64,000 nucleotides of DNA from a phage: the sequence record OZ335964.1. One strand, written 5' to 3'. Made by a program: the position numbers and the translations under genes. Positions 2,119 to 61,641 of the stretch are shown in pieces (within the stretch, counting starts at the first letter, position 1; the number at the start of each line of letters is the position of its first letter). The notes below the pieces were generated by a model. It did not search any database. It worked only from the letters and a program-made list of their open reading frames with translations, and was not told the DNA's origin.

Positions 2119-2120
2119 TA

Positions 2121-5604: not shown

Positions 5605-5645
5605 TTTATATCCTCTAGTTGATAACCTATAAACCTATATTTATG

Positions 5646-5886: not shown

Positions 5887-5922
5887 TTGATACTCCTTAG
5901 TAGTTCGTTTCGGTATGTGTGC

Positions 5923-5951
5923 ATTATAGGGGATCGATGATCCCCTGTCAA
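5923..5951 (-). promoter_or_regulatory. sigma70-type early promoter cassette
   Basis: Minus strand: TTGACA - 17 nt palindromic spacer GGGGATCATCGATCCCC - TATAAT, then conserved leader CCGAAACGAACT and RBS. Confidence 0.6.
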
Positions 5952-5958
5952 CAACTTT

Positions 5959-6477
5959 TTAGTTATTTTTTAATTGCTCATCTTGCAATAAAGCAATCAC
6001 ATGCTGGCGATGTTCTTCCGACTGAGGCACACCGAAAAAGTTTGTTTTGTAGAAATACTCTAATCGGTCTTCTCGTGTGCTCTCTTCCATCATGATCGCG
6101 GGTAGTCCGAGATTTCGGAAACGTCGCTTTTCTGCTGGCGTAAAATCGCTGTAATACAGCATAGAATCATCATTACCAGCAATGCTAAACTCATCCTTCA
6201 TGAAAGAGAATATTGCGTTTAAACGCTGTTTACCGTCCACGATTTCGATCTCATAGCGAGAGCCATCATCAATCTTAGCCATTGCGATAGCACCAACCGG
6301 AAAATCATTAATCAGGTTTTCGATAAACATACGTTTGTTTTCTGTGTCCCATACTAAAGGACGCTGATAATCTGGGTTCATGTTGATAAAGCCATCTTCT
6401 AGCCATGCTTCATAGACAGATATGACAAAGTTTTTAGTATTGGTATAGTAACGGCGTTTAGGCGTTAAACGGTTCAT
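5959..6477 (-). CDS. DUF262/ParB-like domain protein (GmrS N-terminal-domain-like)
   Basis: Motifs DYQRPLVW, FPVG and VDGKQRLNAI (DGQQR-like); start MNRLTPKRR chosen by RBS AGGAGA and coupling to upstream stop (track ORF extends to 6513). Confidence 0.6.
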   Translation of the reverse strand: MNRLTPKRRYYTNTKNFVISVYEAWLEDGFINMNPDYQRPLVWDTENKRMFIENLINDFPVGAIAMAKIDDGSRYEIEIVDGKQRLNAIFSFMKDEFSIAGNDDSMLYYSDFTPAEKRRFRNLGLPAIMMEESTREDRLEYFYKTNFFGVPQSEEHRQHVIALLQDEQLKNN

Positions 6478-6478
6478 G

Positions 6479-6811
6479 TTATAGTCTCCTGAATGGATCA
6501 TCACGTAAATCAATATCTTTTAAGAACTCATCCCATGAATGGCGGATATTGTTCTTAATTCTCCAGATAAGCGCAGGGATTGAACGCTCTCCCATCTGGA
6601 AGTAAGGATCATATGATCCGTATGCCCAATATGCTACTACAATTCCACAATCAGCGCAATAGTATTCTATTTCACTTGCTGGCGACCAAAGTCCATCAAT
6701 ATGATCGGTGATCTTGCTTTCGATGTTATGGCTATGGCAATCAGGGCAACGGATGCAATGACCTTGTTTATCGTAATTTGACGTTAGCGAATACTTAAAC
6801 AATCTCATCAT
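6479..6811 (-). CDS. Cys-rich zinc-ribbon protein
   Basis: 110 aa with CIRCPDC ... CADCG cysteine clusters; start overlaps upstream stop (ATGATGA). Confidence 0.5.
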   Translation of the reverse strand: MMRLFKYSLTSNYDKQGHCIRCPDCHSHNIESKITDHIDGLWSPASEIEYYCADCGIVVAYWAYGSYDPYFQMGERSIPALIWRIKNNIRHSWDEFLKDIDLRDDPFRRL

Positions 6812-7572
6812 AGATCCTTATTGGCTTCAAATACTGCCTTTGCGAATCCTCGCGGGGTAAGTGACCTGATAGTCTTTGTTCTGGTTCCTTTCCCGCCTAG
6901 CTTAGAATGCTGTTTACTGTACCCTTTCTCAATCGGCAACGGTTTCTTTTCTGGCATTATAAAGCCTTGTCCGGTCCATAAGCAAGTCTTTTTCGGGTAC
7001 ATATCACGGGCGGCAATATACTCAGGAAACGTAGGATGTATATCATCTTCCGGCAAATAACCGCCATATTCCCACGGGTGGAACATGTAATCAGGCTTAC
7101 GCCACATGCTAGAGATAACGCTTACAGGATTCTCTATCATGTAGGGAACTCCTAGCCATTCACCCAAATAAGCTGTTATTTTAGCTGCCCGTACATCATG
7201 AACTTGAATTAATGGTCCTTGCTCTCGTTTCTTTCGTTCAAAGTGTGCAGCGCCACTAACAGCTAAATTTGAACAGCTAGGAAACGCAAAGATCATATCC
7301 GGTTTGCCCCATTCAAGATCCATCGCCCTTTCCAACCAATCCAGATCTATCCATGAATTAACATAAGTTAAATTTGGGTGTTCAAATCGAGTGTTATACT
7401 TTTTATATGTTCCATGATCGGCATCATCAGCATTAAAGCAGATCACTTTATGACCTGCTTTAGCCCATTCTAGACCCATAATACCGGACCCATCGAATGT
7501 ACAAAATATAAGTTTACTTTCCGTGGTTTTCATGATAGCCATACTCTCTTTCTGCTTTGGTTCTAACTGCAA
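6808..7572 (-). CDS. SAM-dependent methyltransferase-like protein with C5-cytosine-MTase-type motifs
   Basis: 254 aa; FDGSGIMG (motif I FxGxG), FAFPSCS (motif IV Pro-Cys), MIENPVS (motif VI ENV-like) with canonical spacing; no obvious TRD or motifs VIII-X, so function uncertain. Confidence 0.45.
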   Translation of the reverse strand: MQLEPKQKESMAIMKTTESKLIFCTFDGSGIMGLEWAKAGHKVICFNADDADHGTYKKYNTRFEHPNLTYVNSWIDLDWLERAMDLEWGKPDMIFAFPSCSNLAVSGAAHFERKKREQGPLIQVHDVRAAKITAYLGEWLGVPYMIENPVSVISSMWRKPDYMFHPWEYGGYLPEDDIHPTFPEYIAARDMYPKKTCLWTGQGFIMPEKKPLPIEKGYSKQHSKLGGKGTRTKTIRSLTPRGFAKAVFEANKDL

Positions 7573-8050
7573 CGGCTTCTTCTAGTGTGTCGAAACACCC
7601 TAGATATTTTCTATCACCGCGTCGACCGCCGCCAATTCTAACTACCCATTTATTGTATTTGTTTTTATGTATTCCACTATGTCCGCTTGTATTCTTTTTA
7701 GACTTTGTTTGATTTCTCATGTTGTCGCGGTGTAGTTTAAGTTCAAAGTTAACCGCTCTATTATCTGTCTTAATGTGATTAATATGATCTACTTCATATC
7801 CTTCTGGTATAGGTCCATTGTGGATAATATAACATACTCGATGAACTTTGTAGTTAATAATTTTACCGTCAATTTTTATTGACGATTCAAGATAACGTCC
7901 ACCACTTCCTAGTGACCCGACCTCCTTTCCAGCCCATGCAGCATTCCATTGTTTTATTCTTGATGGGTGTATATCTGTTCTCTCCTTCCATGTAAGGATA
8001 CCAGTGTCAGGATCATAATTAAAGTATTTCTTCCAGTCTATATTGTTCAC
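7514..8050 (-). CDS. HNH homing endonuclease with AP2-like DNA-binding domain
   Basis: 178 aa; HNH_3-type motif VDHINHIKTDNRAVNFEL plus AP2-like SGHSGIHKNKYNKWVVRIGGGRRGDRKYLGCFDTLEEAVAVR. Confidence 0.75.
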   Translation of the reverse strand: MNNIDWKKYFNYDPDTGILTWKERTDIHPSRIKQWNAAWAGKEVGSLGSGGRYLESSIKIDGKIINYKVHRVCYIIHNGPIPEGYEVDHINHIKTDNRAVNFELKLHRDNMRNQTKSKKNTSGHSGIHKNKYNKWVVRIGGGRRGDRKYLGCFDTLEEAVAVRTKAEREYGYHENHGK

Positions 8051-8298
8051 GCTGCCCCCATTGGTTTGATAGTAACAGAATCTAAAAGACCTTTGTTAGC
8101 CAGTTCGCGGCAAGTTTTCAGATCCGTAACTTCCCAGCCAGCCGCAATCAGGTTATCAATCAGGCTGTTAGCAACTTCTTCGCTCATGAAAGAGCACTGT
8201 TTGCCGATGGTGTAGCGTACACGCTGTAATTTCAGTTTACGGAAGCCTTTAACGTTCAGGTCTTTAGCGATTTTCTTTGCGGTTTCGATGTTAGCCAT
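8047..8298 (-). CDS. hypothetical small early protein
   Basis: 83 aa; promoter cassette and RBS upstream; stop overlaps HNH start. Confidence 0.5.
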   Translation of the reverse strand: MANIETAKKIAKDLNVKGFRKLKLQRVRYTIGKQCSFMSEEVANSLIDNLIAAGWEVTDLKTCRELANKGLLDSVTIKPMGAA

Positions 8299-8338
8299 TG
8301 TTTGATTCTCCTAAGTGGTATCTCGTCTTGATGTTTGT

Positions 8339-8368
8339 ATTGTAGGGGATCTCCCGATCCCCTGTCAA
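8339..8368 (-). promoter_or_regulatory. sigma70-type early promoter cassette
   Basis: TTGACA - 18 nt palindromic spacer GGGGATCGGGAGATCCCC - TACAAT on minus strand. Confidence 0.55.
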
Positions 8369-8381
8369 CAACTTTTTTAGA

Positions 8382-8855
8382 TTATTTGCACCAAATTCGA
8401 ATTATTTCGTCTCGTTCAAATTTCTGCCAGATTACTCGGTCACCCGCTGCCATGATACTGACAAATCCAGTTGTGTTTCCTGTGTACTTGCTTTTAGTCT
8501 CGGCATCATATTCAAAGAATGGTGCTTTAAGATCGCTAAACTCATCTTTTCCCACAAACTTCATAACATGACGATGCGCGTAATATTCGCTTCTTAGTGT
8601 TGTTGTGATAGTTCCGTCATTATTTGATTTCAGATGTAATTCTGCATCTTCATAAAGACTTGCATCTCGTTGTTTACTTTCAATACCGTCGTTATATGTT
8701 GATTTCGTTGCACTCCAACATTGATAAGTTTTATCAACATTTTCGATCTTTTCCTGTGTCATATCAAAAAGCGGTGCAACCTTTTTCTTAGCCGCGTGTG
8801 CTACGTTGGTCATGGACAGTGCTGCAACAACCACAATAGCAATAATCTTCTTCAT
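8382..8855 (-). CDS. secreted/periplasmic protein, unknown function
   Basis: 157 aa; N-terminal signal peptide MKKIIAIVVVAALSMTNVAHA. Confidence 0.6.
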   Translation of the reverse strand: MKKIIAIVVVAALSMTNVAHAAKKKVAPLFDMTQEKIENVDKTYQCWSATKSTYNDGIESKQRDASLYEDAELHLKSNNDGTITTTLRSEYYAHRHVMKFVGKDEFSDLKAPFFEYDAETKSKYTGNTTGFVSIMAAGDRVIWQKFERDEIIRIWCK

Positions 8856-8885
8856 AGTATTCTCCTTTTGTTTTGTGTTGGGAGT

Positions 8886-8914
8886 ATCTTAGCGACACTC
8901 CCGTTATTTTTCAA
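8886..8914 (-). promoter_or_regulatory. early promoter cassette (variant)
   Basis: TTGAAA - 17 nt - TAAGAT on minus strand; -10 lies in loop of GGGAGT..ACTCCC inverted repeat. Confidence 0.45.
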
Positions 8915-8919
8915 ATCTT

Positions 8920-9201
8920 TTATTCGTGATTAGTTTCGATGTTATACATTTTGCACCAGTTCAGCCAATCGCCCAGATCTTGATAGTTGATGCTTTTATC
9001 TGCTGCCATCGTTTTGGTCTTGATACCCATATGTGCGTTATGAGTAAGCATTTTTACAGTGAACTCAATTTTATCGCCTTTAGCTTTAACATCAACCAGT
9101 TTGGTCCACTGGCTACCAGCGCCGCGAATGTTCATACCAACGATGTTTCCGATGTATGCTTCTTTGTTTTTCAGGATTTCGGTTGCTTTGATGAATTTCA
9201 T
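8920..9201 (-). CDS. hypothetical protein
   Basis: 93 aa ORF with RBS and promoter cassette upstream. Confidence 0.5.
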   Translation of the reverse strand: MKFIKATEILKNKEAYIGNIVGMNIRGAGSQWTKLVDVKAKGDKIEFTVKMLTHNAHMGIKTKTMAADKSINYQDLGDWLNWCKMYNIETNHE

Positions 9202-29098: not shown

Positions 29099-30073
29099 TT
29101 ACATCGCTAACAGAGAGTCCAGGTCATCCAGATCAGAAGCGGAGGAAGTACCGCCACCCAGGTCCAGAGATGCCATCAGATCATCAGCGGAAGAATCTGA
29201 CGCCGTGCTAGCTGCGTTAATACCAACTACAGTGCTAGCTGCGGTAATACCAGAATCGAATGCATTTAAAGCAGCGTCAAAATCGTCAAGCTGGCTGTTA
29301 ATCGCTGCCGCAGCACTGGAAGCCGCAGCACCAGCTACCATAGAAACGCCCATAGTTTTCTTAAATTTGGTTTCCAGTTCATCGAACGGTTTAAACTGGC
29401 TAGGCGCTACAATCTCTCCCAGGTCAACCATGTTTTCCATCAGATATTTCTGATATGCTTCGTCTTCAATTTTCGGAAGCTGTGATTGCTGCATGAAACG
29501 AGAATCATCATAGTTCTGGTGTTTATCAACCTTCTTAGCTTTCAGGAGGAAGTTAGCACCGGAGAACACACAAGTTACATCGACCGGAACTTCGCCCATA
29601 TCGGTATTCACGTTCACCATTGCAACGATCTTATCATAAATTTTCTGACCGAAGCGGAATTTGAATACCTTACCTTCATTTTCTGGTGCTTGAGGATCTT
29701 TCAGTACCAGAATATTTGCGTAGTAAGAGGCTTTACGCTTAATCAGTTGCCATTCGGTTTTGTCGGTATTGTACAGGTCTTTTTCGTTAATATATTTGCA
29801 CACAGGGCAAGAATCAAAATCACCGTGGGTGCTGGAGCAGTTTTCCCAATACCATTTTCCATTAACTTTGAAGGAATGGTTTACCAGTTTCACAATCGGC
29901 AGACCGTCTTCTGTCTTAGACGGCAGGAAGCGAATCAGGGCTTCACCGTTACCTGCTGCATCAGTCTTAATCTTCCACTCTTTCGGGTCTTCTTTGGAGA
30001 AACCGTTGCCACCTTTCAGTGCGGCCAGTTGAGCTTGCAGTTTGGAGCTATCTTGACGACGAAACATGTTCAT
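29099..30073 (-). CDS. 32: single-stranded DNA-binding protein gp32
   Basis: 324 aa; ALIRFLPSK, NGKWYWENCSSTHGDFDSCPVC, ENEGKVFKFRFG closely match T4 gp32 including the Zn site. Confidence 0.9.
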   Translation of the reverse strand: MNMFRRQDSSKLQAQLAALKGGNGFSKEDPKEWKIKTDAAGNGEALIRFLPSKTEDGLPIVKLVNHSFKVNGKWYWENCSSTHGDFDSCPVCKYINEKDLYNTDKTEWQLIKRKASYYANILVLKDPQAPENEGKVFKFRFGQKIYDKIVAMVNVNTDMGEVPVDVTCVFSGANFLLKAKKVDKHQNYDDSRFMQQSQLPKIEDEAYQKYLMENMVDLGEIVAPSQFKPFDELETKFKKTMGVSMVAGAAASSAAAAINSQLDDFDAALNAFDSGITAASTVVGINAASTASDSSADDLMASLDLGGGTSSASDLDDLDSLLAM

Positions 30074-30133: not shown

Positions 30134-30730
30134 TTAATTGCTTGTCAATACTTTATCAATTATATCTAACAGTTTTGGCTTTCTATTTTCAAATTCTAAC
30201 ATCTCTTCGGGAGAAATGTCAACTACTTCTGTTTTGTTGAAAAAGTTTGGGTCTATAGCATCAGCAACAAAGTTTCTCGCAAGTGCTGCCGCTTTCTCAT
30301 GAACATATATTCCCAAATATATCAACTTCTTTCTTTCGACCTGAATATTGGCAACATATTTACCATCTCGTTTATAAAGACTAACACCGATATATTCAGA
30401 CGATCGACCTTTCTGTTTACCCATATTTCTTGAGTTTTGTTGCTCGTTCGCATCTCTCAAGTTTTCAATCCTATTATCTGTTATAATTCGGTTAACATGG
30501 TCAACGTATTTTGGCATGTATCCATGATGCATAAAGAAAATTATTCTATGCTCTTTATGATGTTTACCATCGATACACACCAATCTGTATCCATGACTAG
30601 GATTAACTCCACCCGCTCTAGATCCGACTTTATGCTTTCTGTTTGTCGATATCTTGCGAATCAGCTTACCGTTATCATATTTAAAGAGTTCATGACAACG
30701 AGCATACAATTCAGGATCATATGTTTTCAC
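30134..30730 (-). CDS. HNH homing endonuclease with AP2-like domain
   Basis: 198 aa; HNH_3 motif VDHVNRIITDNRIENLR plus AP2-like SEYIGVSLYKRDGKYVANIQV; sits between 59 and 32. Confidence 0.7.
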   Translation of the reverse strand: MKTYDPELYARCHELFKYDNGKLIRKISTNRKHKVGSRAGGVNPSHGYRLVCIDGKHHKEHRIIFFMHHGYMPKYVDHVNRIITDNRIENLRDANEQQNSRNMGKQKGRSSEYIGVSLYKRDGKYVANIQVERKKLIYLGIYVHEKAAALARNFVADAIDPNFFNKTEVVDISPEEMLEFENRKPKLLDIIDKVLTSN

Positions 30731-31394
30731 CTTTTAACCTCGATATTTCTTTACACTCTTTAACTACTTTAACAAATAATGCTCTTGCTTTTGCGGCGTC
30801 AATAACAAGTAGTTTCTTGTACGCCTTCATTTTAACACTATAAGTTTGCCAAATCAAGTCTTTGGCTACCTTGTCGTGTTCGTCGATTATATTTAGAAAG
30901 CTATCTAACAACATAAACGACTCAAACGATATAATCCGATTTTGCAGTAGTTTAAAGATACCGCTAGTTTCGGTTGCGGGATTGTATGTAATTAGCTCTT
31001 TAAGAGTAACCCCGCGTTTCTCGGAGAAGTATACCAGACTTTTAATGTCATCGTCAAATCTTGTTGCTGCATCAGTGATCTTACCGATATACTCCATGTA
31101 AAATCCGTATGCGTCAACATCAGTGATTTCGCCTACCCATGCATCGGTATTAGCTACCAGATTGCTTAGGAATAGGAAGTATAATTCTCTTAGATTGTAC
31201 TTTTCCGCTAATTTCGCGAAATAATACTTATCTCTGCGTTTATTGAATGCGGCATCAGATAACCGCATCCTCCAATTGTATTTTACGCAATCGTAACGCC
31301 CGTTCATATGAGCTTTCATCATGCAATATAACATATACACAGATTTAGCATTAATTCGCATATCTGGATCTGGAGGAAGACGGTTTCTGATCAT
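30717..31394 (-). CDS. 59: helicase loader gp59
   Basis: 225 aa; KSVYMLY, MNGRYDCVKYNWRMRLSDAAFNKRRDKY, FLSNLVAN, SFMLLDSFLNIIDEHD closely match T4 gp59. Confidence 0.85.
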   Translation of the reverse strand: MIRNRLPPDPDMRINAKSVYMLYCMMKAHMNGRYDCVKYNWRMRLSDAAFNKRRDKYYFAKLAEKYNLRELYFLFLSNLVANTDAWVGEITDVDAYGFYMEYIGKITDAATRFDDDIKSLVYFSEKRGVTLKELITYNPATETSGIFKLLQNRIISFESFMLLDSFLNIIDEHDKVAKDLIWQTYSVKMKAYKKLLVIDAAKARALFVKVVKECKEISRLKGENI

Positions 31395-52227: not shown

Positions 52228-54336
52228 TTAAAATTTAACATTCTTAACCAGTTTCATAAAGTCTTGTGCTCGTTTGTCGTTGTGCAGAATACGATACCAG
52301 TTATCTACAATATCATACAGTAACGGGCTATTCTCTTTAAACTTCGCACAAACTGCTTTAATTCGTTCGTTTGCTGCCGTGAATTTTTCATCACAAATCT
52401 TTTTAGTTTCTTCGTCCATAATCCAACGGGTGTGAAGGAGTAACTTGGAAACCACTTTATTATAATGACGACCGTACAGTCTGTCAATAAATTCTGGAAC
52501 ACAGCGTTCTAATTCATCGTCATGATACAACATAGTGATCACACCCAGATATTCGCCATACCCCAGATGATTGGTCTTAACCTTCTTAGCCAGACCAGCC
52601 AGCTTACCGCGAACAAATTCTAGCGCACATTCCAGTTGTTCGTCAACGAGATATTTTTGTGTCTCATTACGGGTAATAATATACTTTGTTACCCCGAAGT
52701 AGTCAAGCGCCGTGTGTAATGTATTTTCATTATAGATCGATTGACGGCTACGGCTTTCGAATGCATCACCCACGCGGAACATGTGCAAGCCTGATAACTC
52801 GCGAATCTCTGCCGCTTTCATGTGATGGCTGGTTTTATGCCAACTGTCACCGATCTTTTCCACAATATACACGTTAGGCAGCTTAGGAGTCGCTTCACGC
52901 TGTACACGTTCTGTCTTCTCCGGCTTAACTGCTTTAGCACGCAGGTCGTCGGCCTCGGATACCTTAATCACGGTCATTTCAGATTCATCATAATACTGTT
53001 TGATGTACTCGAAAGTCTCCATATGTTTTTCGTTGTTCTGACGGAACACCAGTACCTTTTTATTGATGCCGTATTCCTGGACCATGCCGTTAAGAGTCAG
53101 TGCACGCAGTTTCGGTTTATCGGTATCATCAATAAGACATGTAATATCTTCTTTATGCATCCATACAAAATGCGTAATGTTGTATTGACTGCTAACGAAA
53201 GCAGGGCGCAATTTACTGATTGTATGTCGAGTACGATACAGAGTATACACTTGACCTTCTACGTCATTAGGCGAATCTTTACCAGCATTAACAAACTTAT
53301 TATAGATTTCTACCGGATCATCCCATTGTCCGATCTTACCCATCTTGCTAATAATATTGCGTTGAGTCGATGAATACTCGCTCATAAATTGCGCAAGTTT
53401 GCGCTCTGTTTTAATGTTGGCGATCTTTTCTTTAACCTTTTCCAACATCATTTCATTGATTTCTGCAATGCGTTTTTCGATGTTCGCTTTAGTCTCAATT
53501 GACAAGTGAACTTCTTCACGCGATGGCATCAGGTCCAGATCACCCAACTCAAAATTAATGTAAATGGTCTGGTGCTGGCGGTTTACAGCTTCTAACCATG
53601 TTCCGCGAACATATTCATACGGGATCGGATACTGGATCTTACCCATGATTGCATATACCACATAGGAATCGTTATCACGTCCATTACACACATAATAATT
53701 ATCAAAGCTAGGGAAATAATTAATTTCGATGGCATTGATATTAGGTTTGTGTTCCCCAAAATGACGCAGTACAAATTGTGCTTCTCGATGCCATGTCTGA
53801 ATATCTTTTTCCTTCACCGGAATAGTGATTTTCAGACCGTTGTCTTCATAGGTCGGTTCGTCGAAAATCTGCACCATTTTCGGCATAGAGTTTTGCACGA
53901 ATGCAGTAAAGCCATAAGCACGACCATTGTAGTAGTTTACGATTGTAAAGGTGTCGGTGTAGCTATAAGCAGATTTCGCACCTAAACCAAAAGATCCGAT
54001 ATAATCATTAGTCTGGTCTTTGGTTGATTCAAAGTAAACAGTAAACAGTTGTTCTAATTCTTTCTTAGACGGAATACCAGTACCATAATCACGCACAGAA
54101 AAATACGGTTCGATTGCAGTCGGTAAATGAATATCAAACGGACGATCTAAGGTTCCGGCTTCTTTGTGAGTGTCGGTAGCATTACATGAATACTCACGGA
54201 CGCAAGCACGCTCACAATATTGATAAGTGTTCTTAGAAAGCACCATAAAAGCCTTGCTACTTGCTTTCAGTGAAAAATCAACCGCACCGCTCAAGTCACT
54301 GCCAAATACTTCTTCATTATCAATATGCATTTTCAT
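52228..54336 (-). CDS. rIIA: RIIA protein (GHKL ATPase-like N-terminal domain)
   Basis: 702 aa (T4 rIIA 725 aa); DYGTGIP and GSFGLGAKSAYSYTDTF Bergerat-fold motifs; adjacent to rIIB. Confidence 0.85.
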   Translation of the reverse strand: MKMHIDNEEVFGSDLSGAVDFSLKASSKAFMVLSKNTYQYCERACVREYSCNATDTHKEAGTLDRPFDIHLPTAIEPYFSVRDYGTGIPSKKELEQLFTVYFESTKDQTNDYIGSFGLGAKSAYSYTDTFTIVNYYNGRAYGFTAFVQNSMPKMVQIFDEPTYEDNGLKITIPVKEKDIQTWHREAQFVLRHFGEHKPNINAIEINYFPSFDNYYVCNGRDNDSYVVYAIMGKIQYPIPYEYVRGTWLEAVNRQHQTIYINFELGDLDLMPSREEVHLSIETKANIEKRIAEINEMMLEKVKEKIANIKTERKLAQFMSEYSSTQRNIISKMGKIGQWDDPVEIYNKFVNAGKDSPNDVEGQVYTLYRTRHTISKLRPAFVSSQYNITHFVWMHKEDITCLIDDTDKPKLRALTLNGMVQEYGINKKVLVFRQNNEKHMETFEYIKQYYDESEMTVIKVSEADDLRAKAVKPEKTERVQREATPKLPNVYIVEKIGDSWHKTSHHMKAAEIRELSGLHMFRVGDAFESRSRQSIYNENTLHTALDYFGVTKYIITRNETQKYLVDEQLECALEFVRGKLAGLAKKVKTNHLGYGEYLGVITMLYHDDELERCVPEFIDRLYGRHYNKVVSKLLLHTRWIMDEETKKICDEKFTAANERIKAVCAKFKENSPLLYDIVDNWYRILHNDKRAQDFMKLVKNVKF

Positions 54337-54814: not shown

Positions 54815-55010
54815 TTTGATTCTCCTTTGTTACTAGATAACGAATTTGGTCTTGCATTGCGATCAGTTCCCAGCGTGCTACTTTCATCATGGAAACTGAC
54901 TCTTTGAACATAATATTAGCTTTTTCCTTCTCCCCTGTCAAGTAGATTTCTGCAATTTTTTCACAAAATTTTTGAGTTTCTTCATTCTTAAACGGTTTCA
55001 TATAAGTCAA
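54807..55010 (-). CDS. hypothetical small protein
   Basis: 67 aa; promoter cassette upstream. Confidence 0.45.
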   Translation of the reverse strand: MTYMKPFKNEETQKFCEKIAEIYLTGEKEKANIMFKESVSMMKVARWELIAMQDQIRYLVTKENQNA

Positions 55011-55031
55011 CCTTTTGTTTTCGATGGGGAC

Positions 55032-55060
55032 ATTATGATATATCCCCGATCCAGTGACAA
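55032..55060 (-). promoter_or_regulatory. early promoter cassette
   Basis: TTGTCA - 17 nt - CATAAT; GGGGA..TCCCC inverted repeat spans -10. Confidence 0.4.
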
Positions 55061-55067
55061 CAGATTT

Positions 55068-55367
55068 TTAATCTTTTTTCAGTGCATCCATTACTCGCTC
55101 TGCGATCAGTTCTCGTAAGCACTGATAACCATGATATTTGATGGCAATGTCACGCAGATCATTAACCAGTTCCCGTACTTCATGGTCTTTCAGATCGTCT
55201 CTGTATTTCGATTTAATCGTATCTTTAGGTGGATTGCGGATAACCTGAAAACCTTGTTCTGCAATCACTGCGGCTTCTCGCTGGCGTTCATGCTGTACTG
55301 TATTTTTGATCAGGTCTGCTTCCATGAACTTTGCCATACTCATCATCATGTTATTCTTTTTGCTCAT
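55068..55367 (-). CDS. hypothetical protein
   Basis: 99 aa from MSKKNN (RBS GAGGA); track ORF has 12-codon extension. Confidence 0.45.
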   Translation of the reverse strand: MSKKNNMMMSMAKFMEADLIKNTVQHERQREAAVIAEQGFQVIRNPPKDTIKSKYRDDLKDHEVRELVNDLRDIAIKYHGYQCLRELIAERVMDALKKD

Positions 55368-55425
55368 TATTAAATCCTCATAAAAGAAAAGGGAGACTCC
55401 CATTATAGAGAATCTCCCTTGTATG

Positions 55426-55989
55426 TCAACTAAAATTTAAAGATGCAAACTCCCCGTGATGAATTTTTGCATATTCATCATATGCTCTAGCGGCTTCCTC
55501 CTGAGTAGCAAACGATCCTATGTATTTTCTGTATCCGTTTATCCTTATTTGTGCTTGCCACGGTCTTTTGCTAGATCCTTTGCGATGAGTAACACCATTA
55601 TATATGCTCGTGCACCCGTCCATTTTCTTTTTATTGTACATGTTTTGTTGTTGTGTTGCCTCCCGTAAATTTGGTGGATTGTTGTTTTCTGGATTCCCGT
55701 CTATGTGGTCTATTACCTTAACCTGTGTTCCATATTCAAGAAACCAGACAATTCTATGTACAAGATATGTAGATGTTCTCTTTTTAACCTTATTGTAAAC
55801 ATCTATTGCCAAATGACCGTAATTTAACTTTTTTGTTTTTACTTTATCACCGACTCGGTAGAAATATCCCTCTGGTAGACCATTAAAAGACGGACTATTT
55901 GTTTTGTGATATAGAACACCTTCCGTGTGTTCAAATCTGCGTTTTAATTCCTCTTGAATTTCAGTATTCCAAAATTTCGCACTTTTCAT
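55426..55989 (-). CDS. HNH homing endonuclease with AP2-like domain
   Basis: 187 aa; HNH_3 motif IDHIDGNPENNNPPNLR..QQQN plus AP2-like SIYNGVTHRKGSSKRPWQAQIRINGYRKYIGSFATQEEAARAYD; immediately downstream of gene 39. Confidence 0.7.
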   Translation of the reverse strand: MKSAKFWNTEIQEELKRRFEHTEGVLYHKTNSPSFNGLPEGYFYRVGDKVKTKKLNYGHLAIDVYNKVKKRTSTYLVHRIVWFLEYGTQVKVIDHIDGNPENNNPPNLREATQQQNMYNKKKMDGCTSIYNGVTHRKGSSKRPWQAQIRINGYRKYIGSFATQEEAARAYDEYAKIHHGEFASLNFS

Positions 55990-55990
55990 A

Positions 55991-57814
55991 TTATGACGCC
56001 ATCCATGCCTTCCTCATGTCTGAATCTTCACTATAGAGCAAATCGAATAGCTCTTTATAGTTTTCCGGTAACGTGATGATTTCCATTACAGGATCGTTGA
56101 TCACGCGATGATAATCTGATTCTGTAAGCGATGCTAACCCTTTGATATATCGAATGTTGTAACCTTTGATATTATCGCGATCGTTCTCGAAATCTTCTAG
56201 GTCATAATACCATCGAACATCATCACCTTTCTTTGGTTCCGCAATGATAATAGGTGTTTTGATAAACCGGATTCGTCCATCTTCGAACAATTCAGGCCAA
56301 CGAGCAAAGAAAGAGATCAGACTAGGTTTAATAGACCCGATGCCGTCAGTATCAGCGTCAGTCATAATCGCAATATTTTTGTATTGCATAACTTCCAGCG
56401 CATCAACACCAAATTGCAAACCAGTGATCGCCATGATGTTAAAAATTTCGGCGTTCTTAACGATCTTTGCCTCCGGTTGTTCCCACGTTGTAAGAGTTTT
56501 GCCTCGCAACGGGAAACCGCCATGTAAATCTTGATCACGTACAGAGATCAGATAGTTGATCGCGGAATCACCTTCCGTCAAAAACAGGGTAGTTTCTGCG
56601 TCAGTTCCAATAAGGTTAGCTTTAACGTGTTTTGCTACCTTAGCCCGTTTTGCTGCCTTTGCTGCCTTAGTCGCTGCCGCTTTATCTGCTGCCTCTTTGC
56701 GTGCCAAAACTACAGCAATAATAGGCATGATAATGTTTTCTTTCTTCGCAATGACTTTAGCCAGTTTTTTAAAATCCAGATCAATGTGTCGCTTGATATC
56801 ACCAGTTGGATTAGTCAAGCGTTCTTTTGTCTGTGAATCAAAACGAAGGTTAGGCAATTCACGAACAATAAGAATACAGGTCAATCCAGACTTAACCGCA
56901 GCTTTAGTAACATCAACCTTATATTCTTTCTTGATTCGTTTTACAATCTCTTCACAAAGATCATCTGTCACGTAGTCTACGTGTGTTCCCCCGTTTTTGG
57001 TAAACAGACCATTAGCAAATGATACTGATTTAAAACCTTCACCTTCAACCGCAGGAACTAGGGCAAGTGAAAAGTTTTTATCTTCAATGACAAACGGATC
57101 ATCATTGTATAGTTTAGCATAATCCTTGAACTTACTAACAATACGTTTACCATTAAACTTAAACGTGATCTTAGGAAAGATTACGCTCAATGATTGCAGA
57201 CGATCATGAACAATATCTAAAACAGAGTTGTCCATCATATAACCTTCGAAGTGGTCGAAGTCTGGGCAAAATGTAACCTTTGTTCCCTTCAATTTTGATG
57301 GTTTTGATGACCATGTGATATTTTCAGCACCGTTTGTGCACTGTACGGTCATTTCTGTTTCGCCGTCACAGGTCACACCAGTAAACCAATCGCTAAAGAA
57401 ATTTGACAACGACGATCCTACGCCGTTCATCCCTTGCGTGAGTCGATTTGTATCATCAAAGTTAGACCCTGCTTTTGTTCGTGTCCAAGCGGCTACAGGT
57501 TGCGGAATCTGCGTGCCCTCTGGGGTAGTAACCATATGTTGAGGAATACCGCGACCATTGTCTGTTACCGTAACAATATTGTTTTGGATATCGACGCTAA
57601 TCACATTGGCAAATTCAAAGTTAGTGCGGATCGCCTCGTCTACAGAGTTGTCGATGATCTCATCAATGATTTTAACCAGTCCAGGAACGTATGAAATTTT
57701 TGTCCACTTACCGAACAGGAAACGTTGATGTTCTTCGTATGTAGTTGACCCTATGTACATCCCAGCACGCTTAAGGACATGTTCACGATCAGATAAAATG
57801 CGGAACTCACTCAT
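55991..57814 (-). CDS. 39: DNA topoisomerase II large subunit (GyrB-like), uninterrupted 39+60 equivalent
   Basis: 607 aa; LKRAGMYIGS, IIDNSVDEA, DNGRGIP (GHKL ATPase) and TEGDSA (TOPRIM); length equals T4 gp39 (516) plus gp60 (160) fused. Confidence 0.85.
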   Translation of the reverse strand: MSEFRILSDREHVLKRAGMYIGSTTYEEHQRFLFGKWTKISYVPGLVKIIDEIIDNSVDEAIRTNFEFANVISVDIQNNIVTVTDNGRGIPQHMVTTPEGTQIPQPVAAWTRTKAGSNFDDTNRLTQGMNGVGSSLSNFFSDWFTGVTCDGETEMTVQCTNGAENITWSSKPSKLKGTKVTFCPDFDHFEGYMMDNSVLDIVHDRLQSLSVIFPKITFKFNGKRIVSKFKDYAKLYNDDPFVIEDKNFSLALVPAVEGEGFKSVSFANGLFTKNGGTHVDYVTDDLCEEIVKRIKKEYKVDVTKAAVKSGLTCILIVRELPNLRFDSQTKERLTNPTGDIKRHIDLDFKKLAKVIAKKENIIMPIIAVVLARKEAADKAAATKAAKAAKRAKVAKHVKANLIGTDAETTLFLTEGDSAINYLISVRDQDLHGGFPLRGKTLTTWEQPEAKIVKNAEIFNIMAITGLQFGVDALEVMQYKNIAIMTDADTDGIGSIKPSLISFFARWPELFEDGRIRFIKTPIIIAEPKKGDDVRWYYDLEDFENDRDNIKGYNIRYIKGLASLTESDYHRVINDPVMEIITLPENYKELFDLLYSEDSDMRKAWMAS

Positions 57815-57913
57815 TATTAAACCTCTTCATAACATAACCATAACTTACTGCAACCGCCACAAAGACGGCTGCAACAATCATATTAAAAATTGAGTGATTG
57901 TCAAGTATATGAC

Positions 57914-58087
57914 TCATGACACGCGCACATTTTTATCGTAATACCCGCCATTAATCCCGCGCGGGGCAGTCAATCCCTGTTTGCATTCTTTACCGCATTC
58001 AGGGCATTCTGCCTTTTCACGCTCGGAAATTTTGCGGATTTTCTGAAATTGACCGTGTTCTTCACAAGAATAATCGTATAATGGCAT
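57914..58087 (-). CDS. zinc-ribbon small protein
   Basis: 57 aa from MPLYDYSCEEHG...CPECG (CxxC...CxxC); track ORF extension overlaps dexA 3' end. Confidence 0.45.
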   Translation of the reverse strand: MPLYDYSCEEHGQFQKIRKISEREKAECPECGKECKQGLTAPRGINGGYYDKNVRVS

Positions 58088-58088
58088 A

Positions 58089-58757
58089 TTATCCCCTTTG
58101 TTTCTTAACTGAATTTGGATCTGGATTTTCTGGTAGGTCTTCCAGACCCATAGCATAACGTTGTGCATAGATTAGCATAAGAATATCGCGAGCGCAATCA
58201 TGAATTGCATCATGTGCGATAAAACCATCTAGCGTACCCATTGGTAACGGACACTCACACATCCCGCGATGCATCAATGTACGCTCAATGGCGGTGCGAA
58301 CATCTCGGATGTTCCAGAATCGCACAGGTTCAAGATTGAACGTCTCTCGTGTATTGTGTGCATCGCGGATCATATCAACTAGTAACGGAATATCAAACGC
58401 ATTACCGCGTGACCACATTACGGATTTAACCGGATCTATTCCTACGGATTCACAGAATGCGTTAAAACGCGCTAAACCTTCTTTAGTTGATACTTCCGTA
58501 CCATTTGTGATTAATTGCTTTCTCATGCCTTCTGAGGCGGTATTCTTCCACCATTCAACCACACCATGATCAAACACCCTTACACCTTTCTGGGAAGGAA
58601 TATCAAATTTTACCAGAAAGGAGTTGTCAACCAGTTCTTTAAATGTAGGTGGATTGTGCGGATCTTCTTTAAATCCGATTGCCGCCATATTGATCACCGC
58701 CCCATCAGGTGGATAACCTAAACTTTCAAAGTCAATCATTAAATCCACTGGAAGCAT
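58089..58757 (-). CDS. dexA: exonuclease A (DEDDh 3'-5' exonuclease)
   Basis: 222 aa from MLPVDLMIDFESLG (T4 DexA 227 aa); DxE and H-x4-D motifs; RBS GGAGGA. Confidence 0.65.
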   Translation of the reverse strand: MLPVDLMIDFESLGYPPDGAVINMAAIGFKEDPHNPPTFKELVDNSFLVKFDIPSQKGVRVFDHGVVEWWKNTASEGMRKQLITNGTEVSTKEGLARFNAFCESVGIDPVKSVMWSRGNAFDIPLLVDMIRDAHNTRETFNLEPVRFWNIRDVRTAIERTLMHRGMCECPLPMGTLDGFIAHDAIHDCARDILMLIYAQRYAMGLEDLPENPDPNSVKKQRG

Positions 58758-58758
58758 T

Positions 58759-59001
58759 TTAAATATCCTCCGCGATGTGCCGGAATAACTCCAGATCATT
58801 TTTATCAAGAATGAAACCGCTACAATCAATAATTCCTTTACCGTAATTATCGGTTAATAGTCGGTCCGTTGCCATGTATGCGCGTACTTTGTTGTTAAAA
58901 TTCATTACATGTTGTGCATAGTCACAATGAATCTTTTGACGGTTCCACGCGACAATTGATTCAAGATGAATTACCTTAGAGATATCGTTAATAACAACCA
59001 T
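58759..59001 (-). CDS. hypothetical small protein
   Basis: 80 aa, coupled to dexA. Confidence 0.45.
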   Translation of the reverse strand: MVVINDISKVIHLESIVAWNRQKIHCDYAQHVMNFNNKVRAYMATDRLLTDNYGKGIIDCSGFILDKNDLELFRHIAEDI

Positions 59002-59180: not shown

Positions 59181-60572
59181 TCAAATATAGTCTACTCGAT
59201 ACCGCGCACGGGTAACACCCACATATAATAACTGCATTGCCAATTCAAAGTCAACATTGTCTGTACACATGCAAGGAGTATACAGGAACACGCGGTCTAC
59301 GCTTATCCCTTGTGACTTATGAATGGTGCAAGCTGGTAATGCTTTTACATTCAAGAACATACGTTTCATCGTCCAGAAGGAATCCCAATCTGGTTTAAAT
59401 TTTGGATTCTCTTTCTTCATTTCGCGATATTGTCCGGCGACCGTATTCAGATAGATAGAGAAAATGTTCTTCTGACGTTGTTCTGTCAGAATGTTGATTT
59501 CTACTAAATCCGGTTTATCTGTAGTGATTCCGACTGCATCTAAACCGACTTTCTGATTTAGGATTTCTTTGTCTTCGTCATCATCGACGCTTTCCACTTT
59601 CAGAGTATAGCCTAAAACTGGTTGCGGATCTACCCCTGTGCAACGTAATGTAAATTCGCGCGGGATAACCTCTTTAACTCGGATCATCTCACCATTGTTA
59701 AAAATAACATTGGGAATCTTCTTCCCGCGTTCATCTCGCAGATATTCGATCAACGGTTCCTGAGTAACCAGAATTTCATCTACAATCACTGGTTCATCGG
59801 TGTTATAAACGCGCTTACGCACAATTTCATTGAGTTTTTCGACGCTCTTGTTAGTGTAGGCCAGAATACGGTTTTCCAACAAGTCTTCCGGCGTTTTAAC
59901 AGCTTCAAAATAATGTTTCATGAACTCTGGCAGCGTTGAGCTATGGAATACACCCTCGTTGTCGCACTGCTTTTCGAATACCCATTTACCGTTACGGACA
60001 GCAGTCGCCACATCAATTATTGGCGCATTAGATCGTTTAATCTCTGTAAGTTCTACATTCTGGAACCTTTCATCTGTGAAGAAAGGAGAGATCGACGTTG
60101 CACCGCTCGGATCAACTGGTCGTAACTGGTACAGATCACCCACGGCAATAATAACAATTCGACCGTTGATACTCTTCATGAGAATATCAAATAGTTTCTT
60201 ATCGACCATACTCGCTTCATCAACAATGATGATCTGAACATCATCTAGCTTAGGAGTATCTTTTTGTTCAAATACTTGAGTATCTTCATAGTTGGTTGGA
60301 TTTAGTCGCAGTAGTGCATGTAAAGTAAATGCTTGACGACCTACCGCCTTACTCAAAACTTTTTTAGCCTGGTGGGTAGGCGTTGCCAAAACCACACCAG
60401 TTACACCACGGCGGACCATTTCCTGGACAATGAATTTCATCATTGCGGTTTTACCAGTACCCGCCGCACCACGGACAGTTGTATGCTTCTTTTGTTCAAT
60501 GCGTTTCATTAGAACATCAAAAGCATGTTTTTGTCCGTCTGTCAACATATCGAAAGTTAATACTCTGCTCAT
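59181..60572 (-). CDS. dda: Dda DNA helicase (SF1B)
   Basis: 463 aa; FDMLTDGQKHAF, Walker A GAAGTGKT, ATPTHQAKKVLSK, IIIVDEASM match T4 Dda. Confidence 0.85.
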   Translation of the reverse strand: MSRVLTFDMLTDGQKHAFDVLMKRIEQKKHTTVRGAAGTGKTAMMKFIVQEMVRRGVTGVVLATPTHQAKKVLSKAVGRQAFTLHALLRLNPTNYEDTQVFEQKDTPKLDDVQIIIVDEASMVDKKLFDILMKSINGRIVIIAVGDLYQLRPVDPSGATSISPFFTDERFQNVELTEIKRSNAPIIDVATAVRNGKWVFEKQCDNEGVFHSSTLPEFMKHYFEAVKTPEDLLENRILAYTNKSVEKLNEIVRKRVYNTDEPVIVDEILVTQEPLIEYLRDERGKKIPNVIFNNGEMIRVKEVIPREFTLRCTGVDPQPVLGYTLKVESVDDDEDKEILNQKVGLDAVGITTDKPDLVEINILTEQRQKNIFSIYLNTVAGQYREMKKENPKFKPDWDSFWTMKRMFLNVKALPACTIHKSQGISVDRVFLYTPCMCTDNVDFELAMQLLYVGVTRARYRVDYI

Positions 60573-60886
60573 TATCCTAAAATCCTCACCTTGCGAACAC
60601 AGATAGTATTGAGTTCTCGCCGTACCCGTTCTTTTTCATATTCAGGAATTTTGTATTCTATACCATCCCGAACAATTTCAGAAGACCGGATTATACCAAA
60701 TTTTCGTTTAGGCACAACCTTGTATTTCGGTTCACCTGCCAATAGACTCTCACAATAATCTATCTGATCACACATTGACGCTAAAGCTGCATCATGTGTT
60801 TCGCAAGTTAGGACGCGACCTTTCGCGTCCACTGAGTATTGAAAGAATCCGTCTTTATCACGATAACATACAGCAAATACATGCAT
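60572..60886 (-). CDS. hypothetical protein
   Basis: 104 aa, coupled to dda (ATGA-type overlap). Confidence 0.5.
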   Translation of the reverse strand: MHVFAVCYRDKDGFFQYSVDAKGRVLTCETHDAALASMCDQIDYCESLLAGEPKYKVVPKRKFGIIRSSEIVRDGIEYKIPEYEKERVRRELNTICVRKVRILG

Positions 60887-61641
60887 TATAAACCTACCTT
60901 CGCTTTCATCAATTCAATCCACGACGCATCAATCGGAAGCCCGTATTTCACGCGTTCTTTTTGTGCTGGCGTTAAGTTCTCATACTTAGAAAGAGATTCA
61001 ATCAAAACGCTGGTATATTTTAGCACGATTTCGGTATTGTTTGCAATAGCCTTAAGTTTTTCCTCTTTCTTGTTGATTTCGCTAAGGGCTTGCTTGAGAT
61101 CTGCAATTTTCTGATAACGTTCTTCCATACGGAAGAGAGTATTTTTAATCGCTCGCTCGGCTGCCTCTGCTTTCTCCGGTTCGTTGTGCTTTTTGTGGCG
61201 CTCGATTGCTAATTTCTTTTCTTCGATTGCCATTTCCTGATTTTTGATGCGATTCTCGTTAAGTTCGATCCACTCTATGTACTTCGCACGTAGGGCAATT
61301 TCATCATCAGAAAGTTTACCGTTAGTTCCTAGTTCTTGGATCTCTTTAAGAGATTCGATAGTGTGATTACCACGGAAAGAATTGTATTTCAGTTTAACCG
61401 GAATCACATTTCCATCAACATAGCCCAGATTGCAATCAATGCGCTCTAAGGAGAGTCCATCATCACCTTCACCAAACTCCTCACCTGAATATGCGCAATG
61501 AGTCTGGCGATAGATGTTACGCACAGTGACTAAGCTCATAGAGAAGTCTTTGTTACGACGAGAAGCGCCAGCCATGATAGAGTTCAAACGGAAAACAACC
61601 AGCGCCAATTCTTCGTTAGATTTAAAAGCAAACAGTTTCAT
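60886..61641 (-). CDS. hypothetical protein (position of T4 srd)
   Basis: 251 aa; N-terminal Cys/His-containing region, C-terminal coiled coil; assignment by position only. Confidence 0.35.
   Translation of the reverse strand: MKLFAFKSNEELALVVFRLNSIMAGASRRNKDFSMSLVTVRNIYRQTHCAYSGEEFGEGDDGLSLERIDCNLGYVDGNVIPVKLKYNSFRGNHTIESLKEIQELGTNGKLSDDEIALRAKYIEWIELNENRIKNQEMAIEEKKLAIERHKKHNEPEKAEAAERAIKNTLFRMEERYQKIADLKQALSEINKKEEKLKAIANNTEIVLKYTSVLIESLSKYENLTPAQKERVKYGLPIDASWIELMKAKVGL

Follow-up and report, generated by a model that had tools for sequence, protein, structure and literature searches.

The window analysed here is a 64,000-nucleotide stretch of phage DNA (OZ335964.1) from a Krischvirus, an RB49-like T4-type phage. 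Gene 39, which encodes the large subunit of DNA topoisomerase II, occupies positions 55,991–57,814 on the minus strand, opening with ATG and closing with the TAA stop at 55,993–55,991. Its 607-residue product matches PHROG 543 ('DNA topoisomerase II large subunit') over residues 2–606 with E=1.3e-252. Pfam places HATPase_c at residues 45–186 (36.8 bits), DNA_gyraseB at 259–383 (62.3 bits), Toprim at 409–518 (21.2 bits) and TOPRIM_C at 519–606 (27.9 bits), the last two slightly below cut-off. The GHKL ATPase, gyrase B transducer, Toprim and TOPRIM_C regions are consequently all carried by a single polypeptide.

In BLASTP comparisons, residues 2–474 (56,393–57,811) are colinear with residues 4–475 of T4 gp39 (57% identity, 474 columns), and residues 476–606 (55,997–56,389) with residues 31–159 of T4 gp60 (53% identity, E=1e-51). 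The first-pass annotation had described the product as gp39 plus gp60 in one uninterrupted frame, with no split or bypass element, and had proposed an alignment with T4 39/mobA/60. The open reading frame list, Pfam, PHROGs and BLASTP bear out this description, and the C-terminus of gene 39 aligns with gp60 in the proposed comparison. The equivalent of the T4 MobA/50-nt bypass site, as defined in bioRxiv 10.1101/2022.08.31.505936, lies at residues ~466–491 (56,342–56,419), ends in DADTDG and is intact and empty. The Toprim motif runs on without a break as TDADTDG|IGS: G491 is followed directly by IGS, D490/G491 being the equivalent of the T4 bypass take-off codon G46. Around the DADxDG motif, the alignment to T4 gp39/gp60 is free of stop codons, frameshifts and any 50-nt gap, and the product has no N- or C-terminal extensions.

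Gene 39 is unsplit in all 59 related Krischvirus records, none of which has a split at the MobA site. In RB49 the gene is annotated as one that 'corresponds to gp60 and gp39 in T4 which are disrupted by an insertion', and in Phi1 it is named '60+39'. Because the unsplit form is the annotated norm in Krischvirus, its occurrence in the window is the ordinary form of the genus and no special state.

In G5211, JK32 and FL04, a second polymorphic endonuclease gene, Endonuclease VII-like, adjoins gene 39 at its 5' end, beside a patch of ~800 nt with only ~79% identity. The G5211 gene was considered as a MobA-like element and rejected as such; it is absent from the window.

The gene 39 stop codon is separated by a single base (TAA-T-ATG, position 55,990) from the start codon (55,989–55,987) of a free-standing homing endonuclease gene (HEG) on the same strand. 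The HEG (55,426–55,989) encodes 187 residues and is annotated in several GenBank records as 'HNH endonuclease' or 'homing endonuclease'. It had been reported as an HNH-AP2 gene starting 2 nt after the stop; the spacing is right when read as a one-nucleotide spacer, and the domain naming agrees with the results given below. Both the 607-residue and the 187-residue frames are genuine and not chance open reading frames.

The 187-residue protein matches PHROG 99 (E=5e-49) and the Pfam family HNH_3 at residues 75–118 (55,636–55,767) with 51.8 bits, against a cut-off of 24.8. This catalytic motif was also recovered in alignments with I-HmuI and with 34 homologs, in which D93, H94, N102, N106 and R108 are invariant. 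The AP2 DNA-binding domain comprises residues ~130–186 (55,432–55,602); Pfam scores it at residues 130–175 with 25.7 bits, under the gathering cut-off of 33.3. A phmmer search of the PDB matched it to solved plant AP2/ERF domains (WRI1, ERF096 and AtERF1; E=9e-6 to 3e-4). The AlphaFold model of the protein (pLDDT 95.8) gave Foldseek matches to 1u3e and 1gcc, and the AP2 part of the model superposes on the AP2 domains of AtERF1 and TEM1 with an rmsd of 1.4–1.6 Å over 61 columns (target-normalised TM 0.78). The AP2 assignment was accepted despite the sub-threshold Pfam score because the phmmer matches and the fold comparison agree. On the predicted structure and the conserved residues, the protein looks like a functional homing nuclease.

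At 36.2%, the GC content of the HEG is below the window mean of 40.4% and ranks among the lowest 4% of equal-sized windows. Another HNH-AP2 copy in the window, at 30,134–30,730, has ~36% identity to it over the HNH-AP2 core. Its closest relatives outside its own cluster share 46–51% identity and occupy other intergenic sites of T4-like phages, adjoining gene 2 or between rpbA and gene 45.

Insertion site, recoded gene end and distribution of the HEG

Pairwise and multiple alignments with HEG-less relatives delimit a mobile cassette of 588 nt (55,430–56,017) that replaces ~30 nt, namely the RB49-type gene 39 tail and its CAC spacer. To its left lies a resident promoter/terminator module (55,389–55,429) recognised by pattern scan, folding and identity with HEG-less genomes. 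It consists of a perfect TTGACA-16-TATAAT promoter (55,429–55,402) inside a 13-bp hairpin (-23.8 kcal/mol, z=-3.9), followed by a U-tract. The module is the same in HEG-less genomes and was kept intact: the left flank is identical as far as 55,429 in genomes with and without the HEG, and the TGA stop of the HEG overlaps the -35 hexamer of the downstream promoter. The insertion point of the HEG is the 3-nt spacer that separates the stop codon of gene 39 from the promoter/terminator module.

The right border of the cassette falls inside gene 39. The last nine codons of the gene (D-M-R-K-A-W-M-A-S-stop; 55,991–56,017) are recoded, and this haplotype occurs in 9/9 HEG-carrying records and in none of the 50 others. 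Twelve alignment columns share no allele between the two groups, and all of them lie within 55,988–56,017; neither the remaining 1,791 bases of gene 39 nor the 430-base left flank holds a fixed difference. In a metagenome copy (L034) a recombination junction lies between 56,017 and 56,023. The recoded tail keeps the conserved D..RK.WM residues while 12 of its ~30 bases are changed. Among HEG-less genomes, too, the final 33 nt of gene 39 are hypervariable (19.5%, against 2.5–3.9% nearby), so part of the contrast between the two groups may reflect weak constraint on the C-terminus. By its linkage to the HEG, the tail is probably an altered homing target together with a co-conversion patch. It could instead be hitch-hiking donor DNA and no immunity determinant. 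An exact 24-mer of the tail had no match in IMG/VR or JGI metagenome contigs.

Features that might govern HEG expression were sought in the surrounding sequence. The best sigma-70-like site in the 3' region of gene 39 (56,137–56,108) scores 9/12, and sites of this sigma-70-like type, to which the scan was directed, are not commoner than in shuffled sequences. The fold of 55,950–56,060 equals that of shuffled sequences (z=0.02), so no RNA structure masking the HEG start was found there. A Shine-Dalgarno sequence created by the recoding was considered and discarded: GAGGAAGG lies 19–26 nt upstream of the ATG and is too distant, and the nearer GGAUGG is present in HEG-less alleles too. The ACCGCCG sequence found in some empty-site tails, which resembles the 'GCC-box' of AP2 proteins, was given no weight, as the RB49-type alleles are devoid of it.

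The HEG is carried by 9 of the 59 related phage records, always at the 3' site of gene 39. In the other 50 the site is empty and clean, with 45 of the RB49 type (...KIWMQS-stop-CAC-TTGACA) and five of the Makalu type (KEWMCS in Makalu_002). Public assemblies index the exact 187-residue protein in 35 blocks, and in each place examined it directly follows the 607-residue topoisomerase gene. Seventeen further copies of the HEG are 99.1–100% identical, and all 18 are intact; eight synonymous and four non-synonymous distinct changes were counted among them, none in the catalytic motif. The copy of phage JSE (EpJSE_00005) has 99.3% DNA identity to that of the window. A search of IMG/VR with a conserved 17-mer for more Krischvirus alleles yielded only two relevant contigs, both HEG-less. 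No protein relatives between ~51% and 99% identity that could represent a donor were found in 5.8 billion proteins or 50,697 phage records.

Across the nine aligned HEG-carrying sequences, the window included, divergence is 1.3–2.8% in the flanks and rises to 9.5% over the first (5') third of gene 39, against 0–0.9% for the HEG in the same genomes. Judged by this divergence, the HEG is a recent insertion, younger than the surrounding DNA. HEG-less JK32 is nearer to the window over 56,024–57,000 than are most HEG-carrying genomes. Flanking variation is weakly linked to HEG status (permutation p=0.01–0.05), and part of the HEG distribution is for this reason regarded as vertical.

Origin and role of the HEG

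The data are quite probably explained by an independent invasion, in which a free-standing HNH-AP2 HEG unrelated to the MobA element of T4 came to lie beside an ordinary unsplit gene 39. Its target is probably the 3' terminus of gene 39 in alleles that lack the HEG. Since it has no convincing promoter or Shine-Dalgarno sequence of its own, the HEG would be transcribed within gene 39 transcripts, and ribosomes that terminate and reinitiate at TAA-T-ATG would probably translate it at a low level. When a carrier and a HEG-less relative infect the same cell, the AP2 domain would attach to the gene 39 3' end of the relative, and the I-HmuI-like HNH domain would then introduce a nick or a double-strand break close by. 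With the HEG-carrying genome as template, recombinational repair would transfer the HEG along with the recoded last nine codons, and the altered bases would protect the carrier from its own enzyme.

A more far-reaching and only tentative proposal, rather doubtful at present, is that the 3' end of gene 39 is an active battleground. The HNH-AP2 enzyme would recognise the last ~30 nt of the gene, and the hypervariability of this segment among HEG-less phages (three haplotypes; 19.5% against ~3% nearby) might arise from target-site escape or from earlier hit-and-run visits. HEG and tail would have arrived together from an unsampled phage genus. On this proposal at least three unrelated homing nucleases, namely MobA in T4, the Endonuclease VII-like one and the HNH-AP2 HEG product, would converge on the topoisomerase large-subunit gene as a hotspot and drive its mosaicism.

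The protein might also be domesticated and beneficial to the phage, either as a nuclease that excludes competitors by marker exclusion or as a regulator of AP2 type that acts on the early promoter next to it. T4 HEGs are known to cause localized marker exclusion of related phages, the HEG lies in an early transcription unit just before a strong promoter/terminator module, and no copy has decayed. The gene is nevertheless dispensable, as only ~15% of otherwise near-identical phages carry it, and the full conservation of the catalytic residues argues against a pure DNA-binding regulator. Exclusion and homing are, moreover, two faces of one activity, so that domestication would differ from independent invasion mainly in the beneficiary. 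Domestication is therefore regarded as unlikely.

Still less probable is an HNH gene ancestral to the genus and precisely deleted in most lineages, with vertical descent and loss in place of homing. HEGs are known to cycle through loss (bioRxiv 10.1101/2022.08.31.505936), and the link of flanking variation to HEG status, weak but significant, is in keeping with such a history. An ancestral gene should nonetheless diverge at least as much as its flanks, which the HEG does not. The empty sites are clean and fall into two haplotypes, the tails of both being unlike the HEG-linked tail; a deletion would have had to excise exactly the open reading frame and to change nine codons besides. The low GC content likewise suggests a foreign origin.

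It is scarcely credible, lastly, that the locus represents an earlier or sister stage of T4 39/mobA/60, with an HNH gene that is related to MobA, lies beside its target and could enter Toprim and split the gene: the host gene and the broad HNH superfamily are shared with T4, the MobA site is intact and conserved, and MobA elements have entered topoisomerase genes repeatedly (bioRxiv 10.1101/2022.08.31.505936), but the HEG belongs to another HNH subfamily with another DNA-binding module, lies beyond the stop codon and 116 codons downstream of the MobA site in a gene without extensions or bypass, and is linked to changes at the extreme 3' end of gene 39 and not in Toprim, while none of the 59 Krischvirus records is split. 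In addition, tblastn of the 187-residue protein against T4 bases 1–9000 (the rIIA–dexA region) gave a best E of 0.63, for a match outside mobA, and the protein was rejected as a MobA homolog. On these sequence comparisons, this precursor or sister reading is largely refuted already.

The first-pass annotation had suggested a pre-insertion or alternative-insertion state of the same locus. The second part stands in so far as a different homing endonuclease has been inserted beside the same gene, and an alternative insertion in this sense is a fair description. The HEG is not the same element as MobA, and 'pre-insertion' only means that this lineage has at no time taken up the MobA element, as the unsplit gene is normal throughout the genus. 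The tempting link to the T4 gene 60 bypass story is thereby corrected: the unsplit gene is the norm and the adjoining HNH gene is a different element.

With independent invasion as the preferred reading, the HEG adds a further uncharacterised representative to a familiar class of selfish genes. The comparison of W115 or JSE with RB49 offers a cleanly delimited natural pair with and without the HEG, in which a 588-nt cassette, its 27-nt recoded host-gene tail included, has been inserted with preservation of the overlapping promoter/terminator. This pair is convenient for studying homing, target recognition by phage AP2 domains and very short co-conversion tracts.

Comparison with known homing systems

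The MobA site at residues ~466–491 is associated in T4 with a 50-nt translational bypass (Manning & Atkins 2022, bioRxiv 10.1101/2022.08.31.505936; Bonocora et al. 2011 as cited there). According to the same study, polymorphisms alone did not block MobA in T4. MobA and the HEG of the window are alike in being HNH-superfamily homing endonucleases at the topoisomerase II large-subunit gene that are polymorphic among close relatives. Each element also holds a diverged short copy of host-gene sequence, homR in MobA and the last nine codons here. MobA inserts inside Toprim, splits the open reading frame and adds terminal extensions and a bypass cassette, amounting to ~1.1 kb, whereas the present element of ~0.59 kb lies beyond the stop codon and leaves the topoisomerase whole. 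The T4 mobA remnant has a different HNH motif (HHILPRSMGGSDDNENL) from the I-HmuI-like HNH_3 and AP2 of the HEG.

In RB49, RB43 and JSE, HNH-AP2 HEGs form an established class (PMC1524935; PMC2993671 Table 5), whose definition goes back to Magnani et al. 2004 (as cited in PMC1524935); Table 5 of PMC2993671 gives two of them for JSE. By sequence and predicted structure, the HEG of the window is a member of this class, with an AP2/ERF-type domain C-terminal to the HNH nuclease. The copies of T4-related phages (RB49ORF040c and those of RB43 and RB16) have the same HNH_3 and AP2 architecture in ~160–200 residues and are, like the HEG of the window, free-standing, intergenic beside a conserved replication gene and patchily distributed. 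They differ from it in sequence, with 46–51% identity for the nearest outside the cluster, and in their sites. The HNH-AP2 literature consulted holds no description of the insertion site between the gene 39 stop and spacer with its linked recoded tail. Within this phage subgroup, we know of no member with a mapped cleavage site.

I-HmuI of Bacillus phage SPO1 (PDB 1U3E) aligns in sequence with residues 42–122 of the HNH protein (E=4e-5) and in fold over 103 columns (rmsd 3.5 Å, probability 1.0). The two proteins have a similar N-terminal antiparallel sheet and HNH core and share the motif VHR...DH.DGN..NN...NLR. I-HmuI is an intron-encoded nicking enzyme with helical and helix-turn-helix C-terminal DNA-binding modules, whereas the HEG of the window is free-standing and carries AP2. 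Strand nicking by the HNH protein is assumed by analogy with I-HmuI.

Other free-standing HEGs of T4 with intronless homing, such as SegF, SegG and MobE, are likewise intergenic beside a conserved gene. In the general model a HEG cleaves the neighbouring gene of a HEG-less phage and the flanking markers are co-converted (PMC2993671). The Seg and Mob enzymes of T4 are of the GIY-YIG type or the Mob type of HNH and have experimentally mapped sites, whereas the HEG of the window combines HNH_3 with AP2. Compared with those of the T4 Seg and Mob HEGs, its putative fixed co-conversion patch is unusually short, covering <30 nt on one side only.

Unsplit topoisomerase gene and the HNH gene behind it

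By megablast, the window is assigned to the genus Krischvirus (RB49, Phi1, JSE, W115 and others), and 59 of 59 matching records are 90-99% identical to it across 55000-58900. Identity to W115 is 100% over 55300-56150; in a comparison across 55000-57814, the fully identical block spans about 55430 to 56500, with 95.5-97.9% in the segments on either side. The phage is thus a mosaic relative of W115 and not W115 itself. The identical block has sharp edges and is centred on the HNH gene, which is consistent with a recent exchange of this segment.

The neighbourhood of gene 39 is the T4-type rIIA-39-dexA-dda region. The ORF list places gene 39 at 55991-57814 (minus strand, 607 aa) and the HNH gene at 55426-55989 (minus strand, 187 aa). 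Around them lie rIIA (52228-54336), a 111-aa ORF beyond the HNH gene (55068-55403) followed by three small ORFs, the zinc-ribbon gene 39.2 (57914-58168), dexA (58089-58829, Rv2179c-like exonuclease domain in Pfam) and a dda-like helicase gene (59181-60572). In the approximately 100-nt gap between genes 39.2 and 39, there is a promoter-like TTGACA-16-TATGAT (11/12; 57904-57877, minus strand) followed by a 14-bp hairpin with a weak T-tail (57877-57845, minus strand). Relatives annotate a 36-aa ORF (RB49p006.1) overlapping the region 57845-57904 and the gene 39 start.

The gene 39 product carries the Pfam domains HATPase_c, DNA_gyraseB, Toprim and TOPRIM_C in this order and is matched in PHROGs to 'DNA topoisomerase II large subunit' (E=1.3e-252). 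Residues 2-474 align with T4 gp39 4-475 (57% identity), and residues 476-606 align with T4 gp60 31-159 (53% identity, E=1e-51). The gp39/gp60 junction is uninterrupted (...GVDALE-V-MQYKNIAIMTDADTDG-IGS...); D490/G491 is the counterpart of the T4 take-off codon G46, and in the alignment to T4 no 50-nt gap follows it. The reading of the first-pass annotation, that gp39 and gp60 are joined in one frame having neither split nor bypass, is borne out, including the C-terminal alignment to gp60 on which it depended. The HNH gene was likewise correctly placed directly behind gene 39: the stop TAA (55993-55991) is followed by one base (55990) and the ATG (55989-55987). The unsplit state is already known and annotated, since the RB49 record describes a gene that 'corresponds to gp60 and gp39 in T4 which are disrupted by an insertion', and the Phi1 record names it '60+39'.

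The HNH-AP2 protein and related genes

The 187-aa protein has an HNH_3 domain at residues 75-118 (Pfam, 51.8 bits, cut-off 24.8) and an AP2 match under the cut-off at residues 130-175 (25.7 bits). In a sequence search of solved structures, residues 42-122 matched I-HmuI, the SPO1 intron endonuclease (1u3e, E=4e-5), with the common motif VHR...DH.DGN..NN...NLR, and plant AP2/ERF proteins were also matched (WRI1, 9e-6; ERF096, 3e-5; AtERF1, 3e-4). A confident AlphaFold model built from 34 homologs (pLDDT 95.8, pTM 0.87) was matched by Foldseek to I-HmuI over its N-terminal ~100 residues and to AP2 domains over its C-terminal 61 residues (rmsd 1.4-1.6 A, TM 0.78, AtERF1-normalised). D93, H94, N102, N106 and R108 are invariant in the homologs. 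With its I-HmuI-like nuclease, the gene falls into the HNH-AP2 class, and several records already label it HNH or homing endonuclease.

Beyond its own 99% cluster, the closest proteins are only 46-51% identical and belong to further T4-like phages, where their genes lie in different intergenic sites (adjoining gene 2; between rpbA and gene 45); the best match among phage records (46%) adjoins an exonuclease-subunit gene in Klebsiella phages. This spread is the usual pattern for a family of free-standing homing endonuclease genes (HEGs), each lineage being bound to its own site. HNH-AP2 HEGs were noted in RB49 and RB43 in 2006 (PMC1524935), and Table 5 of Petrov et al. 2010 counts two in JSE and one in RB49 (PMC2993671). 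The additional JSE copy is very probably the 187-aa gene (EpJSE_00005).

The window holds other HNH genes. A second HNH_3 plus AP2 gene (30134-30730, minus strand, 198 aa, GC 35.0%) lies between gene 59 (30717-31394) and gene 32 (29099-30073). Over the HNH-AP2 core, it shares about 36% identity with the copy behind gene 39, and it probably also encodes a free-standing homing endonuclease, possibly of the RB49ORF040c type. A third HNH_3-family gene (7514-8050, minus strand, 178 aa) has a GC of 37.4%, and no AP2 was detected in its product. A 251-aa ORF (60886-61641, minus strand) without Pfam matches contains an HNH-like string (...SLERIDCNLGYVDGNVIPVKLKYNSFRGNHT...) in its N-terminal part, then a long charged coiled-coil-like tail, and may encode a further HNH protein, either degenerate or novel. 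Directly upstream of gene 39, G5211 (L003, 4322-5050, minus strand), JK32 and FL04 carry a 242-aa Endonuclease VII-like gene, unrelated to MobA and absent from the window, where its site corresponds to ~57815-57915. In these three phages, the 5'-terminal ~800 nt of gene 39 (window 57001-57814) match the window at only ~78-80% identity; the diverged segment also occurs in G37-3, there without the Endonuclease VII-like gene. Gene and diverged segment together appear to mark a second homing element, independent of the first and with a long co-conversion tract.

Insertion site, recoded tail and age

The HNH gene is present in nine of the 59 records (W115, FL15, pEJ01, G37-3, G5211, kvi, LF73P4 and JSE twice); in each of the remaining 50, the alignment falls into two pieces with a gap at the gene. 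The index of public assemblies lists the exact protein in 35 blocks, and in every assembly context examined the gene immediately follows the 607-aa topoisomerase gene. In an alignment of the window with eight genomes carrying the HEG and nine lacking it, the left flank is the same in both groups as far as 55429. Genomes lacking the HEG read gene 39 stop, CAC, TTGACA; the window reads gene 39 stop, T, ATG...AGT, TGACA. The ORF therefore occupies the 3-nt spacer, and its TGA stop is made from a resident -35 hexamer, part of a perfect sigma-70 promoter, TTGACA-16-TATAAT (55429-55402, minus strand). The promoter is nested in a terminator hairpin (55420-55389, minus strand; -23.8 kcal/mol, z=-3.9) before the 111-aa ORF. 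Both elements (55389-55429) are unchanged by the insertion and conserved in all relatives, and the GEC-3S record annotates a terminator and promoter at this site.

In every genome with the HEG, gene 39 ends in ...GAC ATG AGG AAG GCA TGG ATG GCG TCA TAA (D-M-R-K-A-W-M-A-S), against D-Q-R-K-I-W-M-Q-S, D-R-R-K-I-W-M-Q-S or D-R-R-K-E-W-M-C-S in genomes without it. The D, RK and WM residues are retained, and part of the changes are synonymous (CGC AAA to AGG AAG). Twelve columns have no allele common to the two groups, all within 55988-56017; there are none in the other 1,791 bases of gene 39 (310 variable) or in the 430-base left flank. When the recoded tail is used as a 45-nt probe, the matches are precisely the nine HEG-bearing records. 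Of the others, 45 have the RB49-type empty junction and five are of the Makalu/SSG23 type. A metagenome copy (L034) has an RB49-like codon immediately upstream of the recoded patch, and a recombination junction therefore falls between 56017 and 56023.

The last 33 nt of gene 39 (55991-56023) also vary among genomes lacking the HEG (L002 and L011-L018), with three haplotypes and 19.5% mean pairwise divergence, against 2.5-3.9% in the adjacent 1 kb. Weak constraint and target-site escape are possible causes of this hypervariability, and so are traces left by elements that visited the site earlier. Since MobA polymorphisms by themselves are insufficient for immunity in T4 (bioRxiv 10.1101/2022.08.31.505936) and the tail is hypervariable even where the HEG is missing, a contribution of the recoded tail to destroying the target site is plausible but unproven.

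Seventeen further HEG copies, from eight GenBank phages and nine public assemblies (one of which, L041, repeats the FL15 record), are all intact and 99.1-100% identical to the window copy. They show 12 distinct substitutions (8 synonymous, 4 non-synonymous), none in the catalytic motif. Among the nine aligned sequences with the HEG, window included, the flanks differ by 1.3-2.8% and the 5' third of gene 39 by 9.5%. JK32, which lacks the HEG, is 98.3-99.6% identical to the window over 56024-57000, closer than most genomes that carry it. Judged from these sequences, the HEG is younger than the DNA around it. Weak linkage of the flanks with HEG status (permutation p=0.01-0.05) fits partial hitch-hiking, as expected. 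At 36.2% GC, the HEG ranks among the lowest 4% of windows of its size (mean 40.4%), and the window's two other HNH genes are likewise low in GC.

Proposed homing and comparison with T4 elements

No promoter above 9/12 was found in the gene 39 3' region in a scan for sigma-70-like sites, and no terminator was found between gene 39 and the HEG, which would be read off gene 39 transcripts. Because there is no Shine-Dalgarno at a useful distance from its ATG, translation is proposed to be probably weak, via reinitiation at TAA-T-ATG. The architecture, exact insertion, polymorphism, linked recoded tail and low divergence are observed here; the route of homing is inferred. In co-infection, the HEG protein would recognise gene 39 at its 3' end in a phage lacking the HEG and, by analogy with I-HmuI, may nick it rather than make a double-strand break. 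Repair would then copy in the HEG with the recoded tail, and tail and insertion together would destroy the site.

The split of T4 gene 39 is due to the ~1.1-kb MobA element, which inserts at residues ~466-491, and adds C-/N-terminal extensions and a bypass; every clade having the element also includes close, unsplit 'parental' relatives (Manning & Atkins, bioRxiv 10.1101/2022.08.31.505936). In a tblastn search, nothing in the T4 mobA region resembles the 187-aa protein (best E=0.63, for a hit outside mobA), and the HNH motif of the mobA remnant is unlike the protein's own. All features defining the MobA element, namely homology, insertion site, terminal extensions and bypass, are absent from the HEG. 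The suggestion that the locus may be a pre-insertion or alternative-insertion state of T4 39/mobA/60 is partly supported, holding only loosely, in that another homing endonuclease adjoins gene 39. The locus is tidy, convenient for experiments and unsurprising, and its HEG is proposed to work like the free-standing HEGs of T4, by intronless homing.
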